Shown piece after piece: positions 604-5,061 of a stretch of DNA of 5,061 nucleotides. The notes below the pieces were generated by a model. It ran no database searches. It was given only the letters and a program-made list of their open reading frames with translations, and was not told the DNA's origin. This DNA comes from a virus (Duplodnaviria; Heunggongvirae; Uroviricota; Caudoviricetes), in IMG/VR virus record IMGVR_UViG_3300013741_000048, positions 1 to 5,061 of that record. One strand, 5' to 3'. Every line of letters begins with the position of its first letter. Within the stretch, counting starts at the first letter, position 1. The position numbers and the translations under genes are program-made.

Positions 604-666
604 ACAACCTCCTTTTTTTGATAATCCTTGCACTCCTTGGCTACTCGTTCAAACCACATAAAGTTG

Positions 667-695
667 TTGACAATATTCAAAACCACAACTAAATT
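667..695 (+). promoter_or_regulatory. Candidate sigma70 promoter (TTGACA, 17-bp spacer, TAAATT) pointing toward the 68-aa ORF, flanked by direct repeats TTCAAA(A)CCACA at 648-658 and 676-687
   Basis: Perfect -35 hexamer TTGACA at 667-672, 17-nt spacer, TAAATT at 690-695 (4/6 match to TATAAT). Near-identical 11-12 nt direct repeats bracket the -35. Sequence-only prediction. Confidence 0.35.
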
Positions 696-786: not shown

Positions 787-810
787 AAAAAAGCGCCCTA
801 CAGGACGCTT
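787..810 (-). terminator. Rho-independent terminator-like hairpin on the minus strand
   Basis: Plus strand reads AAAAAA GCGCCC TACA GGACGC TT. On the minus-strand transcript this is a GC-rich stem (one G-U wobble) with a 4-nt loop followed by a run of 6 U. On the plus strand the same stem has a C-A mismatch and no U-run. Confidence 0.5.
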
Positions 811-868
811 AGCTCTTTAACAATCTGGTCCCCATCAACAAGTAACTGATAACTTGAGGAGGTGTGAA

Positions 869-1075: not shown

Positions 1076-1481
1076 GATCCCATTCATTTTCGTCAAAATC
1101 ATCAAAGTGATGAATTTGTGATCTCCAGTCTCGATAATCTAAAAATTTCTGGGCGGTTACGCTTATTTTATCAAGCATGAGTTCATCCTGAATTGAAAGA
1201 AGAAGTTCATCAAATTTCATCTCATTAATCTGTTTTGGCATCCAGTGATGCTTCATCAGAATAAGGTGAACCAGAGCTTTTTTCCCATTCAACTGATTAT
1301 AGGGAGTGCCGAATTTCTTCCGGTGCTCATGTAAGACAAGGTCCAGAAGAGTAAGTAATGTTGCCCTTGATTCAACTTTGCTTATTTCGACTGATGACAC
1401 TCCCCCACTGATTTCAATGCCCCGATACTTTCCAACATTTTCACAGTGGGATTTGTACAGCGTATAGATATTACCGGACAT
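1047..1481 (-). CDS. Hypothetical protein (144 aa), AT-rich, opposite orientation to the phage operon
   Basis: Complete ORF from ATG (complement of 1479-1481) to TAA (complement of 1047-1049), with a purine-rich stretch (AAAAGGAAAAG) just upstream. No family recognised from sequence. A weak R-x4-H motif (RSQIHH) near the C-terminus is HEPN-like but unconvincing. Confidence 0.6.
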   Translation of the reverse strand: MSGNIYTLYKSHCENVGKYRGIEISGGVSSVEISKVESRATLLTLLDLVLHEHRKKFGTPYNQLNGKKALVHLILMKHHWMPKQINEMKFDELLLSIQDELMLDKISVTAQKFLDYRDWRSQIHHFDDFDENEWDPNLSAQYLK

Positions 1482-1496
1482 TTCTTTTCCTTTTGC

Positions 1497-1544
1497 GTTG
1501 TTGGGGATAACCAGATTAACCGAATCCTTGTTGTTGGGGAATAA
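1497..1544. repeat. Two direct repeats GTTGTTGGGGA(A)TAA (1497-1510 and 1530-1544), 33 bp apart, immediately upstream of the 144-aa gene start
   Basis: Exact 14/15-nt match seen in sequence, with weaker similarity extending about 11 nt to the 3' side (CCAGATTAACC vs CTAGGTCCACC). The position fits operator or iteron-like sites in the promoter region of the minus-strand gene. Confidence 0.7.
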
Positions 1545-1765
1545 CTAGGTCCACCTCGCCTGATGTGGCTAAAAGCAGGCACATAACAGCTAAGTATTTT
1601 CAACCAGAGAGAATCCTTAGCGTTGTGGTGAATGCGGCTCAGCGCACGCGGGTTAAGGTTGAGGCTGACAGTCGACCTTCTGTGGATACCCACCCGCCTG
1701 GTGTGCAACCTTCGCCAGGCACCGGGAGGCACCCGGCACCACAACTTTATGCTGCGTGTAGTCTT

Positions 1766-1812
1766 GGCGGTACCAGCTTGTACCCTTGCTTCCGGCTGGT
1801 ACCGTCCTTTTT
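1766..1812 (+). terminator. Rho-independent terminator-like hairpin on the plus strand, upstream of yfdP
   Basis: Perfect 10-bp stem CGGTACCAGC (1768-1777) / GCTGGTACCG (1795-1804), extendable with G-U pairs, followed by C then TTTTT (1808-1812). There is no U-run on the opposite strand. Confidence 0.5.
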
Positions 1813-1901
1813 ACAAAACAGAGAAGAGCATCACCGGACGACGGGCTCATAACCCAATCCATCCGGGCGGCTGTCACCGCAGGTGTTCTTCTCTGTTTTG
1901 T
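1813..1901. repeat. Perfect 15-bp inverted repeat ACAAAACAGAGAAGA (1813-1827) / TCTTCTCTGTTTTGT (1887-1901) flanking a 59-bp GC-rich spacer
   Basis: Exact reverse-complement match read directly from the sequence. It starts right after the terminator U-tract and ends 48 nt before the yfdP start codon. Confidence 0.85.
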
Positions 1902-1949
1902 GGAGAAACCAACCGACCTTGCAGGGTCGATATGATGAGGAGCAGCAAA

Positions 1950-2312
1950 ATGGCTAGCGAACGCAGTACTGATGTGCAGGCATTTATCGGGGAGCTGGAC
2001 GGCGGCGTATTTGAAACCAAAATCGGCGCAGTTCTCAGTGAAGTCGCTTCCGGTGTGATGAACACGAAAACCAAAGGTAAGGTCTCACTCAACCTGGAAA
2101 TCGAACCATTTGATGAGAACCGTGTGAAAATCAAACACAAACTCTCATATGTTCGCCCGACTAACCGCGGGAAAATTTCCGAAGAAGACACCACCGAAAC
2201 GCCGATGTATGTCAATCGCGGTGGTCGTCTGACTATTCTGCAGGAAGACCAGGGACAATTACTGACTCTTGCCGGTGAACCTGACGGAAAACTCCGCGCA
2301 GCAGGTCATTAA
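1950..2312 (+). CDS. yfdP: YfdP-like prophage protein of unknown function (120 aa)
   Basis: ATG at 1950 is 7 nt downstream of AGGAG (1938-1942). The product MASERSTDVQAFIGELDGG... matches my recollection of E. coli CPS-53 YfdP in sequence and length. The longer track ORF (1632..2312) extends into the GC-rich island with a non-protein-like translation. Confidence 0.8.
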   Translation: MASERSTDVQAFIGELDGGVFETKIGAVLSEVASGVMNTKTKGKVSLNLEIEPFDENRVKIKHKLSYVRPTNRGKISEEDTTETPMYVNRGGRLTILQEDQGQLLTLAGEPDGKLRAAGH

Positions 2313-2377
2313 TATCGTTCTTAATTAACTGATTATTTATCTCATCACTGAATATCTTTATATAATGAGGACTTATT

Positions 2378-3202
2378 ATGTCTCAGAACTTAGACGCAAC
2401 CGCAATTAATCAAATCCATGCCCTTATTTCTGCTCAGGGTGTTAATGAAATTATCAGTAAGATTGGTGCCGATGCTGTGGCATTGCCTGAGAATTTCCGC
2501 ATTCATGATCTGGAAAAATTTAATTTAAATCGCTTCCGTTTCCGTGGTGCGCTTTCCACTGCCAGCATCGATGACTTTACCCGTTATTCTAAAGATCTTG
2601 CAGATGAAGGCACCCGCTGCTTTATCGATGCTGATAATATGCGTGCCGTCAGTGTGCTTAACCTGGGTACTATTGATGAACCAGGTCACGCCGATAACAC
2701 CGCCACTCTCAAACTGAAAAAGACAGCACCGTTCTCTGCTCTGTTGTCTGTTAATGGCGAGCGTAATTCCCAGAAGTCACTGGCAGAATGGATTGAAGAC
2801 TGGGCCGACTACCTTGTGGGCTTTGATGCTAATGGTGACGCTATTCAGGCAACAAAAGCGGCTGCGGCTGTCCGTAAAATCACGATTGAAGCAAACCAGA
2901 CCGCTGATTTTGAAGATAATGACTTCAGCGGCAAACGCTCCCTGATGGAGTCTGTCGAAGCGAAGACCAAAGACATTATGCCAGTGGCATTTGAATTTAA
3001 ATGCGTTCCGTTTGAAGGTCTGAAAGAACGTTCTTTTAAATTACGCCTCAGCATTATCACTGGCGATCGTCCTGTACTTGTTCTGCGCATTATTCAGCTG
3101 GAGGCTGTGCAGGAAGAAATGGCTAACGAATTTCGTGATCTGCTTGTTGAGAAATTCAAGGACAGCAAAGTAGAAACCTTTATTGGTACTTTCACCGCCT
3201 GA
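2378..3202 (+). CDS. yfdQ: YfdQ-like prophage protein (274 aa; DUF2303 family as recalled)
   Basis: Complete ORF with RBS GAGG (2367-2370) upstream of ATG 2378. Length and sequence match my recollection of CPS-53 YfdQ. Family assignment is from memory, not a search. Confidence 0.88.
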
Positions 3203-3214
3203 TTTGATTACTGC

Positions 3215-3236
3215 AAATGCCCCTGCGGGGGCATTT
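3215..3236 (+). terminator. Hairpin AAATGCCCC-TGC-GGGGGCATTT downstream of yfdQ; weak or bidirectional terminator-like element
   Basis: 9-bp inverted repeat with a GC core and 3-4 nt loop, followed by TTTAT. The U-tract is short, so termination is probably partial. Confidence 0.4.
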
Positions 3237-3329
3237 ATGGAAACGTAATTGACTCAATAATCGCCGGATGGTGAGGGCTTCCTTTTACCAGAATTCAGCG
3301 CGGTGCAGCGCATATACGTGGAGAACAAA

Positions 3330-3866
3330 ATGTCATTTATTAAAACTTTTTCCGGGAAGCATTTTTATTATGACAGGATAAATAAAGACGATATCGTGAT
3401 TAACGATATCGCAGTTTCCCTTTCAAATATCTGTCGCTTTGCCGGTCATCTTTCACACTTCTACAGCGTCGCCCAACATGCGGTGCTTTGCAGCCAGCTG
3501 GTGCCGCAGGAATTTGCTTTTGAAGCGTTAATGCATGATGCAACAGAAGCGTATTGTCAGGACATTCCCGCACCACTGAAACGCCTTCTTCCTGACTATA
3601 AACGGATGGAAGAAAAAATAGACGCCGTAATCCGTGAGAAATACGGGTTACCCCCGGTTATGAGTACACCCGTGAAATATGCCGATCTCATCATGCTGGC
3701 AACCGAACGCCGCGATCTCGGGCTTGATGATGGCTCTTTCTGGCCTGTACTGGAAGGCATCCCGGCAACAGAGATGTTCAACGTGATTCCACTGGCACCG
3801 GGCCATGCCTACGGGATGTTTATGGAACGCTTTAACGAATTATCGGAGTTACGCAAATGCGCATGA
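3330..3866 (+). CDS. yfdR: HD-domain phosphohydrolase, YfdR-like 5'-deoxynucleotidase (178 aa)
   Basis: ATG at 3330 is 6 nt downstream of GGAG (3320-3323); the track ORF starts at an upstream in-frame GTG (3303). The protein has H...HD spacing (SVAQHAV ... LMHDATEAY) typical of HD-domain metal-dependent phosphohydrolases. Length matches my recollection of E. coli YfdR. Confidence 0.85.
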   Translation: MSFIKTFSGKHFYYDRINKDDIVINDIAVSLSNICRFAGHLSHFYSVAQHAVLCSQLVPQEFAFEALMHDATEAYCQDIPAPLKRLLPDYKRMEEKIDAVIREKYGLPPVMSTPVKYADLIMLATERRDLGLDDGSFWPVLEGIPATEMFNVIPLAPGHAYGMFMERFNELSELRKCA

Positions 3867-4219
3867 ATGTTTTCGAAATGGAAGGGTTTCTTCGCGGGAA
3901 ATGTGTACCGCGAGATCTGAAAGTGAATGAAACGGATGCTGAATACCTGGTGCGTAAATTCGATGCGCTTGAAGCTAAATGTGCAGCACAGGAAAACAAA
4001 GTAATACCAGTGTCAACTGAACTGCCACCAGCAAATGAAAGTGTTCTGTTATTTGATGCTAATGGAGAAGGCTGGCTGATTGGCTGGCGTTCTCTCTGGT
4101 ACACCTGGGGACAAAAAGAAACCGGAGAATGGCAGTGGACATTTCAGGTCGGGGACCTTGAAAACGTCAATATCACTCACTGGGCAGTAATGCCAAAAGC
4201 ACCGGAGGCTGGAGCATAA
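3857..4219 (+). CDS. yfdS: YfdS-like phage protein (120 aa; DUF551 as recalled)
   Basis: ATG 3857 follows GGAG (3845-3848). An alternative ATG at 3863 forms an ATGA overlap with the yfdR stop (3864-3866). The C-terminal region (WQWTF...ITHWAVMPKAPE) resembles DUF551 phage proteins. Confidence 0.8.
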   Translation: MRMNVFEMEGFLRGKCVPRDLKVNETDAEYLVRKFDALEAKCAAQENKVIPVSTELPPANESVLLFDANGEGWLIGWRSLWYTWGQKETGEWQWTFQVGDLENVNITHWAVMPKAPEAGA

Positions 4220-4524
4220 TGACCACTTTTACCGACAAAGAACTGATTAAAGAAATTAAAGAGCGTATCAGCAGCCTTGACGTGCGAGACGATATTGAGC
4301 GCCGTGCTTATGAAATCGCACTCGTATCTCTGGAAGTAGAGCCAGATGAACGCGAAGCCTATGAATTATTCATGGAAAAGCGTTTCGGTGACTTAGTAGA
4401 TCGTCGGAGAGCAAAAAACGGCGATAACGAATACATGGCATGGGATATGACTCTCGGTTGGATCGTCTGGCAGCAACGAGCTGGTATCCATTTCTCAACA
4501 ATGTCACAGCAAGAGGTGAAATAA
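4219..4524 (+). CDS. yfdT: YfdT-like small phage early protein (101 aa), function unknown
   Basis: TAATG overlap with the yfdS stop (4217-4219 / 4219-4221), GGAG at 4211-4214. Length and sequence match my recollection of CPS-53 YfdT. Confidence 0.78.
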   Translation: MTTFTDKELIKEIKERISSLDVRDDIERRAYEIALVSLEVEPDEREAYELFMEKRFGDLVDRRRAKNGDNEYMAWDMTLGWIVWQQRAGIHFSTMSQQEVK

Positions 4525-4874
4525 TGGAGCCATACAGCCTCACACTCGATGAGGCCTGTCAGTTTCTTAAGATATCCAGACCAACCGCCACCAACTGGAT
4601 ACGAACAGGCCGCCTACAGGCAACACGTAAAGATCCAACCAAGCCAAAATCTCCTTACCTCACAACACGGCAAGCCTGCATTGCGGCGCTTCAGTCTCCG
4701 CTGCATACTGTCCAGGTGAGCGCGGGTGATGGCATAACAGAGGAAAGAAAATGTCACTCTTCCGCAGAGGTGAAATATGGTACGCCAGTTTCACATTGCC
4801 GAACGGTAAAAGATTTAAACAGTCTCTTGGAACAAAGGACAAAAGGCAGGCGACAGAACTCCATGACAAGCTAA
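4524..4874 (+). CDS. xis: Excisionase, P22-type Xis (116 aa)
   Basis: ATG 4524 is 7 nt downstream of GAGG (4513-4516) and overlaps the yfdT stop (TAATG). The N-terminus [26 protein letters not shown] is a typical excisionase/AlpA-type winged-helix motif. Its 3' end overlaps the integrase start. The track ORF (4440..4874) is an in-frame upstream extension overlapping yfdT and is not preferred. Confidence 0.85.
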
Positions 4875-5061
4875 AGGCTGAAGCATGGCGGGTCAGCAAA
4901 CTTGGTGAAATACCTGATATAACGTTCGAGGAAGCGTGTGTCAGGTGGCTTGAAGAGAAAGCACATAAAAAATCACTGGACGATGACAAAAGCCGGATCG
5001 GATTCTGGCTTCAACATTTCGCAGGAATGCAACTAAGAGACATTACTGAATCAAAAATTTA
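4751..5061 (+). CDS. int: Tyrosine integrase, P22/e14-type; N-terminal ~103 codons only, continues beyond window end
   Basis: ATG 4751 with GAGG at 4739-4742. The N-terminus [48 protein letters not shown]... is the characteristic arm-binding N-terminal domain of P22-family integrases (recalled). Frame is open to the last base. Confidence 0.92.

Follow-up and report, generated by a model that had tools for sequence, protein, structure and literature searches.

In the pL operon of phage lambda the N-leader and sib hairpins are RNase III hairpins, and in the E. coli thrS operator an mRNA leader mimics a tRNA anticodon arm. DicF is released by termination together with processing by RNase III as well as RNase E. 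The put element of phage HK022 consists of two stem-loops directly downstream of the promoter (PMC9378689). Members of the STnc100 family are expressed, Northern-verified and Hfq-bound in EHEC (PMC5331693; PMC12711010); the family is related to PasD, and the STnc100/PasD consensus structure was made with RNAalifold (bioRxiv 10.64898/2026.05.13.724894).

The locus described here belongs to a lambdoid prophage of the SfV/ST64B/CPS-53-like type and was analysed within a window of 5,061 nt, the whole stretch of DNA examined. An earlier note had singled out positions 1561-1930, upstream of yfdP, as a GC-rich, highly structured island without a protein-like reading frame. The GC content of the island is 55.1%, against 39.9% in positions 1-1560 and 46.3% in positions 1931-5061, rising to 63.7% in a core at 1622-1745 and to exactly 70% on one 60-nt line (1681-1740), in agreement with the hand-counted value of about 70%. 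On the left the contrast is strong; on the right, where yfdP begins with ∼53% in its first 100 nt, it is weak. All of the stems listed in that note are present in the sequence, and folding energies fell below those of dinucleotide shuffles, with z-scores of -2.6 (1600-1815), -3.75 (1743-1815) and -5.7 (1806-1950). The structure is borne out by compensatory changes in the segments termed modules A and C below, and this covariation among homologues is stronger evidence than the z-scores. At the place of the imperfect hairpin that precedes module A (Table 1), ST64B carries, by eye, a hairpin of other sequence (TAAGAG...CTCTTA).

The island had been regarded as one element, which it is not: BLASTN comparisons resolved at least three modules that travel independently and together make up a mosaic. 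The question of which neighbouring block it travels with has a divided answer, the 5' domain moving separately and the terminator and long hairpin moving with the downstream early-gene block. The gene order in SfV, ST64B, phiES15 and LLS is repressor, small ORF, island-type RNA and early genes. The island is absent from CPS-53 of K-12. An identification of the locus with 'pawZ' of CPS-53 was considered and rejected, pawZ being a 15-nt argW fragment at the prophage end according to the K-12 annotation and a paper.

Table 1. Features of the island and reading frames that overlap it, in window coordinates.
Feature	Position	Strand	Basis or remark
Imperfect hairpin abutting the structured domain on its 5' side	1589..1621	+	13-nt arms GCTAAGTATTTTC/GAGAATCCTTAGC, 85% complementary
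Module A, STnc100-superfamily multi-helix domain ('X domain')	1622..1745	+	Rfam STnc100 alignment and covariation
P1 closing stem	1622-1630/1737-1745	+	Covarying helix
GAAU junction	1630-1633	+	Module A
P2	1634-1649	+	Covarying; followed by variable hairpins
Pseudoknot, J2/3 AAGGUUG (1655-1661) with P4 loop CAACCUU (1706-1712)	1655..1712	+	7 nt, 100% complementary
P4, 6-bp stem GCCTGG/CCAGGC	1696-1701/1715-1720	+	Inverted-repeat search and fold; covarying, 65 distinct stem sequences
P5, 5-bp stem CCGGG/CCCGG, loop AGGCA	1722-1726/1732-1736	+	Inverted-repeat search and fold; covarying helix
Module B part 1, single-stranded linker, motif (A/U)UGCUGUGUGUAGUCUU	1746..1765	+	Candidate for a seed or Hfq-binding region
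Module B part 2, intrinsic terminator	1766..1812	+	13-bp stem 1766-1778/1794-1806, 15-nt loop, U5 1808-1812
Module C, conserved three-way-junction leader RNA	1808..1906	+	Fold and RNAalifold
Outer helix, 23-25 bp	1808-1832/1882-1906	+	Module C
Arm 1	1834-1866	+	Module C
Arm 1 tip CGGGCUCAUAACCC	1842..1855	+	Three G-C pairs, 7-nt loop CUCAUAA; equals tRNA-fMet anticodon stem-loop
Arm 2	1867-1880	+	Module C
(G/A)UG-GAG-AAA at 3' base of module C	1900..1935	+	Possible 11-codon mini-ORF, GUG 1900 to UGA 1933-1935
Module D, hairpin CGACCU/GGGUCG, loop UGCA	1914..1929	+	In MFE fold
95-aa ORF	1565-1852	+	Overlaps island
49-aa ORF	1786-1935	+	Overlaps island; match to phrog_33599, E 3.7e-18 (1786-1932)
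74-aa ORF	1653-1877	-	Overlaps island; match to phrog_3651, E 6.6e-49 (1656-1877)
120-aa ORF	1382-1744	-	Overlaps island
226-aa ORF in frame with yfdP	1632-2312	+	Overlaps island

Taken literally, the statement that neither strand has a protein-like reading frame does not hold, since ORFs overlap the island. RefSeq/PGAP labels the equivalent of window positions 1625-1935 a 'frameshifted hypothetical protein', a 190-aa - strand CDS is annotated over the homologous region in phage F1055, and PHROG families are matched on both strands. These annotations would favour a decayed or overlooked protein gene, either the + strand PGAP pseudogene or the - strand ORF of the phrog_3651 family, which we nevertheless consider highly improbable. 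Relative to ST64B, the three phases of the island carry 28/26/27 substitutions and its indels measure 1, 1, 20 and 1 nt, unlike the neighbouring yfdP, in which substitutions number 25/34/76 by phase and indels are 12 and 3 nt long. Moreover, the lengths of the module A core (n = 142) represent all residues modulo 3, with 40 of the 142 lacking a stop-free frame, the module C variants differ in length by 8, 19 and 23 nt, and there was no significant Pfam match in the island. PHROGs are made from predicted ORFs, and a spurious family can arise from a conserved RNA. The phase counts and non-triplet indels uphold the non-coding conclusion. Because changes in homologues compensate within RNA helices, G-U pairs are valid only on the + strand and a codon-phase signal is absent, the island is, as judged from sequence comparison, a genuine non-coding RNA of the + strand, a structured ncRNA and/or regulatory leader rather than a gene, as the earlier note had proposed.

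The same note had reported no match to a known phage RNA, which a covariance-model search overturned. The Rfam STnc100 model (RF02076) aligned over its full length (1-206) to window 1604-1815 at E 5e-7, its 42.8 bits falling just short of the gathering score (47), and accepted members in related contigs score 54-165 bits, with a continuum down to the window copy. Bona fide STnc100 copies and the window have the near-invariant motifs UGGUGAAU...CACCGGGAGGCACCCGGCACCA in common, and an exact 22-mer at 1720-1741 is common to more than 120 viral contigs. We extracted 142 unique homologous module A cores; among 40 representatives, P1, P2 and P5 were 94.5% paired compared to 82% in shuffles, with changes on both sides in 10 of the 19 pairs. 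P4 and the pseudoknot could not be aligned across subfamilies by MAFFT, and anchor-based extraction with a test of cognate versus non-cognate partners was used for these; P4 was found to vary widely among the homologous cores (Table 1). With the core motifs, P2, P4 and the closing stem present, covariation for P1, P2, P5 and P4, and a 3' intrinsic terminator giving a predicted RNA of 191 nt (1622-1812), module A is assigned to the STnc100/PasD superfamily as a predicted pseudoknotted multi-helix domain.

In the window, SfV, ST64B and phiES15, module A is found in the early-left operon, with the repressor on one side and yfdP or kil on the other, and in E. coli K-12 (Qin) an unannotated domain of this type lies between dicF and dicB. 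Two types of copies were distinguished, type I being followed by a terminator in 56 of 77 cases and type II, which has the same 5' head as the window, by an RBS within 70 nt, not a terminator, in 57 of 63. The scores of -10-like sequences upstream of P1 fail to separate the two types. P2 resembles a terminator arm in one type I subgroup, with nothing general emerging.

Besides STnc100 and a weak DicF match, the only Rfam match in 1604-1930 was a weak one to ftsZ-DE on the - strand (1590-1649, 18.1 bits, E 5.3); none of the riboswitch or ribozyme classes in Rfam matched this region. A relation to the c4 RNA of phage P1 and to IsrK (RF01695, RF01394; RNase P-processed antisense RNAs) was considered and rejected, the covariance models having found nothing in the window at E up to 10. 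Genuine copies of C4 and isrK occur elsewhere in ST64B and in contig L233.

The pseudoknot joins J2/3 to the loop of P4. In relatives both positions are complementary with other sequences, for example CAGUUAA/UUAACUG in Qin, AAGGCUGG/UCAGCCUU in phiES15 and AGACUGACAAA/UUUGUCAGUCU; 40 distinct types were found, and cognate partners scored 12.6 versus 8.7 for non-cognate partners (Mann-Whitney p 4e-14). A competing local hairpin, 1655-1662 with 1672-1679, is present in the MFE fold. The pseudoknot is missing from the consensus structure line of Rfam STnc100 in the cmscan output, and RNAalifold, to our knowledge, predicts no pseudoknots. The covarying pseudoknot is an addition to the STnc100 fold.

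Module B consists of a conserved single-stranded linker and a terminator. The linker, which can be written UGCUG(U/C)GUGUAGUCUU and has a U-to-C change at 1755 in the window, is kept directly 5' of wholly different terminator stems in ST64B, phiES15, LLS, L015, L053 and L236; the stems themselves are swapped for fully different complementary sequences in ST64B, phiES15, Kp4866-6 and LLS. The terminator has a perfect core of 10 bp (1768-1777/1795-1804) that extends to 13 bp, and folds with -25.7 kcal/mol (z -3.75), a value equalled by 0 of 200 shuffles; with more than 8 nt in its loop, it escaped a simple terminator scan. Since the U-tract to which the earlier note had drawn attention follows this strong hairpin, an RNA ending there is plausible.

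Contig L233 carries the 5' domain of the Qin DicF precursor (∼140 nt, almost identical to Qin) followed by a window-type terminator instead of DicF. Through this contig the locus and its flanks are linked to those of dicF in Qin-type prophages, and module B is placed, by comparison of the two arrangements, at the position DicF occupies in Qin. The Rfam DicF model (RF00039) gave 19.4 bits at 1753-1807 (E 0.92), which is not significant and is below 48 bits. The 190-nt DicF species of Qin starts ∼6 nt 5' of a GUUGUGG...CCACAAC closing stem that resembles P1.

Module C is the novel part of the island, with no Rfam match at E up to 10. Its MFE is -59.7 kcal/mol (z -5.7), and it contains a long-range inverted repeat (1813-1837/1877-1901) whose 25-nt arms are 84% complementary and include 15 perfect bp. 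RNAalifold of 21 diverse homologues returned 37 pairs, 9 with compensatory changes, and many of the U-G pairs would be A-C on the opposite strand. We found module C in more than 80 distinct viral-contig variants and in some two dozen species of Enterobacterales. A loose gapped pattern (GCATCACC N40-70 GCAGGTG) gave mostly chance matches and required filtering, and about a dozen non-enterobacterial matches from the genome scan were dismissed as chance or as one truncated tRNA-like sequence. Identification of module A or C as an HK022 put-like element was likewise rejected, the HK022 genome having no significant match to either motif.

The tip of arm 1 gives the longest common substring with E. 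coli metZ, 14 nt at window 1842-1855 corresponding to tRNA positions 29-42, a length reached by 0 of 2000 island shuffles. A relic of captured host DNA, one of the earlier suggestions, is rejected for the island as a whole, yet this short stretch is identical to the anticodon stem-loop of the host tRNA-fMet. A tRNA gene or tRNA-derived att remnant was not found, the window having no cloverleaf (ARAGORN, Rfam tRNA) and the 14 nt covering only part of the anticodon arm. Homologues found by BLAST have the loop CUCAUAA or CUCAUUA. The main viral-contig and genome scans required the motif, and its invariance there is by construction; with a motif-free anchor, 13 of 15 matches were true module C inner sequences, a small set, of which 10 kept the motif intact and 3 had a single change in the 3-bp stem, with the loop unchanged in all.

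Module C might mimic the anticodon arm of the initiator tRNA and, as a decoy or sensor, link early phage expression to the translation-initiation state of the host, a reading we regard as quite unlikely. Candidate partners would be VapC/MvpT-type toxins cutting tRNA-fMet, for which VapC is reportedly specific, methionyl-tRNA synthetase, or the 30S P site with IF3. The metZ identity is displayed as a 3-bp G-C stem and 7-nt loop at a conserved arm tip; every true homologue has this loop either unchanged or with A37U, with varying flanking helices; and many prophages of Enterobacterales carry the element, Shigella and Salmonella phages among them, all of which would suit mimicry. However, the match was spotted post hoc among many possible tRNA comparisons, only three of the tRNA arm's five stem pairs are retained, complementarity to AUG is trivial for any hairpin loop with CAU in it, and the conservation of the motif has to be read from the small anchor-free set.

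At the 3' base of module C, a start codon and GAGAAA occur in most variants, with an ORF of 4-46 codons whose peptide is unconserved beyond MEK(L/P)T; the conservation of (G/A)UG-GAG-AAA may lie at the RNA level rather than in a leader peptide. Module D is located just upstream of the yfdP RBS (GAGGAG, 1938-1943; ATG at 1950). Its homologues have a different stem (GGCGG...CCGCC) with a similar U(U/G)GCAG loop, identifying it as a predicted covarying hairpin before the RBS.

We consider it moderately probable that the island is a non-coding leader of the early-left operon, built of exchangeable + strand RNA modules, which provides both a terminated, processed sRNA and a gate and leader for yfdP-xis-int. 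Transcripts from an upstream early promoter would mostly end at 1808-1812, and trimming at the 5' side of P1 could give an A+B RNA of ∼190 nt and possibly a ∼60-nt seed-plus-terminator species, both proposed by parallel with the 190-nt and 53-nt DicF species and the ∼200-nt STnc100 RNAs. The A+B RNA would use the conserved linker to base-pair in trans, probably together with Hfq; this 190-nt species is postulated by analogy, as are its ends and its trans targets. The same terminator would limit read-through into yfdP-yfdT-xis-int, and on read-through transcripts modules C and D may form a structured 5' leader that controls processing, the 23-25 bp helix being suited to RNase III, and/or how the first downstream gene is translated.

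Several observations count against this combination of sRNA and leader. P1 has 9+4 bp here and is too short for a classical RNase III site (∼21 bp in Qin), the STnc100 score is below the gathering threshold, and the DicF score is not significant. A scan of 1400-2000 found no promoter-like site, and expression would therefore depend on an upstream promoter, a candidate for which was picked by eye. Furthermore, with 57 of 63 type II copies before an RBS instead of a terminator, a role of module A in cis fits as well as or better than one in trans, and it is unusual for an RNA that merely carries an Hfq seed to have a compact pseudoknotted fold and nearly invariant nucleotides at its junction.

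The locus could instead be a purely cis-acting leader, in which module A and/or C act on the polymerase or the transcript and the short terminated RNA is a by-product; we hold this to be somewhat unlikely. Possible modes are HK022 put-like processive antitermination, a ligand- or protein-controlled attenuator, or a processing/stability element, gating entry into yfdP-xis-int. Such a leader would explain why domain A has two expression platforms, terminator or RBS, as riboswitches and leaders do, and it suits the compact fold with its invariant junction residues, the K-12 copy directly before dicB, the constant placement of module C between terminator and first early gene in the relatives compared, and the alternative local partner of J2/3 (1672-1679) that competes with the pseudoknot. 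Against it, no consistent, mutually exclusive pairing of domain A with the terminator was apparent by eye, and the terminators are unrelated in sequence between relatives. No riboswitch family matches, and since HK022 lacks both motifs, a sequence relation to put RNA is absent. Domain A of Qin lies downstream of the DicF terminator and therefore cannot control it, and STnc100 RNAs accumulate and bind Hfq (PMC12711010).

Of 5426 complete E. coli genomes, 2782 have a match to a query of 1500-1960 and 1627 contain 80% or more of it; island matches were also present in Shigella, Salmonella, Klebsiella and Stx-converting phages. Annotation pipelines overlook the region or call it a frameshifted pseudogene. 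The island occupies a decision point, with the immunity region on one side and the excision/integration genes on the other, and an RNA made or gated here could act from the lysogen on host physiology, in the manner of DicF and STnc100/EcOnc27, and could also affect prophage induction. STnc100/PasD, the DicF precursor and the K-12 dicF-dicB spacer, treated separately so far, are joined as one modular system, and module C, with its copy of the anticodon arm of the initiator tRNA, offers a concrete lead to a new kind of phage-host interaction.

Unlikely when taken jointly are two linked readings, that module C is an undescribed, widespread prophage RNA with a deliberate copy of the initiator-tRNA arm, and that the STnc100 domain is a pseudoknotted binding module. 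If true, module C as decoy or sensor (VapC-type toxin, MetRS, or 30S P site with IF3) would tie early prophage expression or anti-defence to translation initiation, and the STnc100 domain would bind a ligand, a protein or RNA polymerase, beyond serving as the body of an Hfq sRNA. Lambdoid phages would then reuse this domain before terminators and RBSs, including in the unannotated dicF-dicB spacer of K-12.

Compared with HK022 put, the locus likewise has cis-encoded structured RNAs of 70-100 nt in an early operon of a lambdoid phage without an obvious N protein, before terminators; module C, however, follows its terminator, and HK022 is without the module A and C motifs. With the lambda N-leader and sib RNase III hairpins, module C shares a long, near-perfect pL-operon helix of RNase III-suited length directly upstream of a ribosome-binding region, but the sequences are not similar, and module C forms a three-way junction whose tip is conserved. 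The likeness to the thrS operator is that of a 5' leader hairpin near a translation start copying the anticodon stem-loop of a specific tRNA; the window differs in copying, as a putative mimic only, the initiator tRNA, in being phage-borne and in having no cognate synthetase gene downstream.

Close relatives are STnc100/PasD and DicF. With the former the window shares the full-length covariance-model alignment, motifs UGGUGAAU and CACCGGGAGGCACCCGGCACCA, the P1 closing stem, P4 and P5, as well as a structured 5' domain, single-stranded linker and intrinsic terminator totalling ∼190-210 nt and a location in lambdoid prophages. The first hairpin is GCGGCUCAGCGCACGC in the window and CCCCCUGUGCGGAGGGG in STnc100, the linker and terminator of the window are of the DicF type, and the window copy lies in the early-left operon downstream of the repressor, whereas the usual location is the late region, close to Q, tRNA genes or clusters, stx and lysis genes, often with copies in tandem. 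With DicF and its 190-nt precursor (dicBF operon, Qin) it shares the operon slot, after a CI-like repressor and small ORFs and before the first early gene. The STnc100-like domain follows DicF and precedes dicB in Qin and precedes the terminator in the window. The linker (seed) and hairpin loop differ from those of DicF, and shared targets such as ftsZ are therefore not expected. Nevertheless, both RNAs are composed of a 5' domain closed by GUUGUGG/CCACAAC, a linker and a terminator starting UUGGCGGUA(U/C)CAG, and natural recombinants exchange one for the other.

The window corresponds to the left arm of an SfV/SfII/ST64B/CPS-53-type lambdoid prophage, with the island (1561–1930) lying ahead of the yfdP block. 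In SfV, ST64B, phiES15 and LLS, the island homologue is found between a CI-type repressor, which precedes it on the same strand, and the first early-left genes; K-12 CPS-53 is without it. Of 5426 complete E. coli genomes, 2782 matched a query of 1500–1960 (1627 of them over at least 80% of it), and 65 phage records match, among them phages of Shigella, Salmonella, Klebsiella and Cronobacter as well as Stx2-converting phages. The island has 55.1% GC, whereas the sequence on its left has 39.9% and that on its right 46.3%, consistent with the GC excess over both flanks that the earlier note had described; the lines it put at about 70% trace to one 60-nt line at 70%, and every stem it listed was found. 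Folding z-scores within the island were −2.6, −3.75 and −5.7. BLAST against phages revealed breakpoints across it: 1560–1763 is matched in SfV, SfII, SfIV, ST64B and phiES15, 1764–1935 occurs together with yfdP in Stx2c phages, mEp460 and cdtI, and 1802–1913, in Salmonella F1055 and Klebsiella Kp4866-6, is not accompanied by the SfV-type 5′ domain. At least three modules therefore make up the island.

Coordinates of features in the window and in compared loci (L numbers; L226, E. coli K-12 Qin; L227, phage F1055)
Feature	Position	Strand	Remark
Near-consensus promoter, by eye	666–694		TTGACA, 17 nt, TAAATT
Hairpin and rrn-type boxA-like AGCTCTTTAACAA, by eye	795–832		~100 nt past the TTGACA promoter
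68–73-aa ORF	854/869–1075	+	first in gene order
144-aa ORF	1047–1481	−	directly before island
Module A	1622–1745	+	STnc100-like domain
Module B	1746–1812	+	linker and terminator
Module C	1808–1906	+	three-way junction
Module D	1914–1929	+	small hairpin preceding yfdP RBS
yfdP	1950–2312	+	after island; then yfdQ, yfdR, yfdS, yfdT, excisionase, integrase
phrog_3651 (162 aa) match	1656–1877	−	ORF over conserved RNA modules
phrog_33599 (62 aa) match	1786–1932	+	ORF over conserved RNA modules
Annotated 190-aa CDS, phage F1055	L227 2088–2660	−	same place as the phrog-matching ORFs
Accepted STnc100 tandem pairs/triplets	L020 2795–3798; L037 486–1488; L007 8044–8560; L021 342–1253		beside 1–4 phage tRNA genes
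STnc100-like domain, K-12 Qin	L226 2950–3090; NC_000913.3 ~1649449–1649589		between dicF terminator and dicB; unannotated
isrK and C4 genes, ST64B	L004 1409–1597	−	adjoining
isrK and C4 genes, related viral contig	L233 5052–5240	+	adjoining

From their sequence, the promoter and boxA-like element look like an early-left promoter and nut-like site upstream of the 73-aa ORF, which is without the arginine-richness of N. The window carries a run of 10 Ns (568–577), past which the AT-rich minus-strand ORF starting at 603 is out of frame, so that the upstream cargo gene (1–603) is unreadable. Elsewhere in the early region of ST64B and a related viral contig, isrK and C4 antisense RNA genes adjoin each other; such phages thus encode several distinct structured RNAs.

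No known phage RNA had been recognised in the earlier note; however, the Rfam STnc100 model aligned at full length to 1604–1815 with 42.8 bits (E 5e-7), just below its gathering score of 47. Viral contigs were scanned twice, for the 22-mer CACCGGGAGGCACCCGGCACCA and for the 5′ head TGAATGCGGC...GCGCNCGCGG, and each scan found at least 120 loci. The matches listed in both scans gave 142 unique cores of 72–142 nt (all but one 104–142); in common they have the closing stem P1, the GAAU junction, hairpins P2, P4 and P5 and, between P2 and P4, a middle that varies. Where the head is CCCCCUGUGCGGAGGGG, the copies count as accepted STnc100 members (54–165 bits), often in tandem and adjoining tRNA clusters, which suggests co-transcription and possibly shared processing; copies with the window's kind of head, GCGGCUNAGCGCACGCGG (type II), are sub-threshold. 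In 40 representative cores with the variable middle cut out, P1, P2 and P5 were paired at 94.5%, compared with 82% in shuffles and 35–50% in slid controls, and 10 of their 19 pairs showed changes on both sides, so that the covariation check proposed in the earlier note came out in favour of the stems. Likewise, P4 was present in 141 of the 142 cores, with 65 different stem sequences among the matches listed.

Module A also contains a pseudoknot. AAGGUUG (1655–1661), just 3′ of P2, is complementary to the P4 loop CAACCUU (1706–1712), and relatives preserve the complementarity of these two positions with different sequences (40 distinct types among the matches listed), cognate strands scoring 12.6 against 8.7 for non-cognate ones (Mann–Whitney p 4e-14). 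The pairing is absent from the STnc100 consensus structure line printed by cmscan. RNAalifold is not known to predict pseudoknots. A published STnc100 consensus structure was built with this program (bioRxiv 10.64898/2026.05.13.724894). As far as our searches show, a pseudoknot in the STnc100 fold is undescribed. The 5′ strand has an alternative partner, 1655–1662 with 1672–1679 (AAGGUUGA/UCGACCUU), which the MFE fold picks and which is partly kept in ST64B and phiES15; a conformational switch is possible.

In module B, hairpin 1766–1806 followed by U5 is predicted to be a strong terminator (−25.7 kcal/mol, z −3.75). Its stem is swapped for unrelated complementary sequences in ST64B, phiES15, Kp4866-6 and LLS, with the U-tract retained, as is the single-stranded motif (A/U)UGCUGUGUGUAGUCUU just 5′ of the terminator; a motif kept beside changing stems is the pattern expected of a seed or Hfq-binding stretch. 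Although Rfam DicF scored only 19.4 bits, module B is equivalent in position to DicF. Natural recombinants join the 5′ part of the DicF precursor to a window-type terminator: in L233, the 5′ domain (~140 nt, almost identical to Qin) is followed by such a terminator replacing DicF. DicF is released in Qin as two species, one of 190 nt whose 5′ end RNase III generates and one of 53 nt generated by RNase E. Counting back 137 nt in the K-12 sequence places the 190-nt start ~6 nt 5′ of a P1-like GUUGUGG...CCACAAC stem; in the window, P1 to the U-tract spans 191 nt. This P1-like closure is seen in the precursor 5′ part (L226 2752–2882; L233), which begins like the island domain (GUUGUGGCAACCCGCG... 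and GUUGUGGUGAAUGCGG...); the precursor part may represent a divergent relative of this STnc100-like domain. The module A domain also occurs between the dicF terminator and dicB in K-12, where it scored 34.4 bits against STnc100 (E 1.4e-5), with the pseudoknot at the same positions (CAGUUAA/UUAACUG) and a P1 of ~21 bp, by eye, that would suit RNase III.

Module C folds as a three-way junction whose outer helix is 23–25 bp long (−59.7 kcal/mol, z −5.7). For 21 diverse homologues, RNAalifold predicted 37 pairs, 9 with compensatory changes (e.g. C-G to G-C, 13:8 sequences), and many U-G pairs assign it to the plus strand. No Rfam family matched it. The module was found in more than 80 distinct viral-contig variants and in about two dozen Enterobacterales species, in most cases with a GGCGG-type terminator immediately 5′ and the first early gene (yfdP-like, rdgC-like or other) 3′ of it. 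The tip of arm 1, CGGGCUCAUAACCC (1842–1855), is identical to positions 29–42 of E. coli initiator tRNA metZ, the shared part being the CAU anticodon loop with three G-C pairs; a 14-nt match was reached in none of 2000 island shuffles, and ARAGORN called no tRNA. BLAST homologues keep the loop as CUCAUAA or CUCAUUA. With a motif-free anchor, 13 of 15 distinct inner sequences were true module C, the motif being intact in 10, while each of the other 3 has just one change, confined to the 3-bp stem. Because the identity was spotted post hoc and extends to just three of the five stem pairs, tRNA arm mimicry is treated here as a hypothesis. As far as searches show, module C with its initiator-tRNA anticodon-arm copy is undescribed. 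A metagenome-assembled gammaproteobacterial contig (L357 ~3650–3760) carries a truncated tRNA-fMet-like sequence, the 5′ half and anticodon arm running directly into the acceptor 3′ end, again with no ARAGORN call; these are probably the remains of a tRNA, without relation to module C.

In relatives, the stem of module D is swapped for GGCGG/CCGCC and its loop U(U/G)GCAG is retained. A conserved (G/A)UG-GAG-AAA at the 3′ base of module C could open a mini-ORF of 4–46 codons with unconserved peptide; in the window, a possible GUG1900–UGA1935 overlaps at its end, through an AUGA, an in-frame ATG at 1932, which precedes the annotated yfdP start by 18 nt. A further 17 residues on the N-terminal side of annotated YfdP are covered by the phrog_204 profile, and the true yfdP start may lie upstream and be translationally coupled.

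The island had been called ORF-free, which fails literally, five ORFs of 49–226 aa overlapping it, but holds in that phase and indels reveal no coding constraint. Against ST64B (78% identity), substitutions over the three phases were 28/26/27 with indels of 1, 1, 20 and 1 nt; yfdP, in the same comparison, gave 25/34/76 and indels of 12 and 3 nt. Among the matches listed, lengths of the 142 module A cores represent all residues mod 3, and 40 cores have no stop-free frame. Pfam returned nothing significant for the island, PGAP annotates a frameshifted pseudogene over it, and two of its ORFs match PHROG families. The simplest explanation of these families is ORF calling over conserved RNA, and they look like spurious families seeded by structured RNA.

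The earlier note's reading was essentially right, and the finding is real: the analysis shows the RNA structures, their conservation, the terminator-like hairpin and the non-coding status. As to function, we infer that early-left transcripts would end mostly at 1812, releasing a ~190-nt small RNA (modules A and B), perhaps trimmed further, that would work in trans like DicF and STnc100/EcOnc27, which are expressed and Hfq-bound in EHEC (PMC5331693, PMC12711010). The chief alternative, in which module A would act purely in cis, draws on type II copies, in which an RBS instead of a terminator follows in 57 of 63 among the matches listed, and on a fold unusually elaborate for an sRNA body. Under the trans-acting reading, the terminator would also gate entry into yfdP-xis-int, and modules C and D of the read-through RNA would control processing or translation. 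Other identities were tested and rejected: C4/IsrK, put RNA, a tRNA gene and known riboswitches. Most of the island belongs to known kinds, the STnc100 and DicF-type prophage sRNAs, of which it is a re-assorted variant that scores below threshold and occupies an unusual place in the operon.
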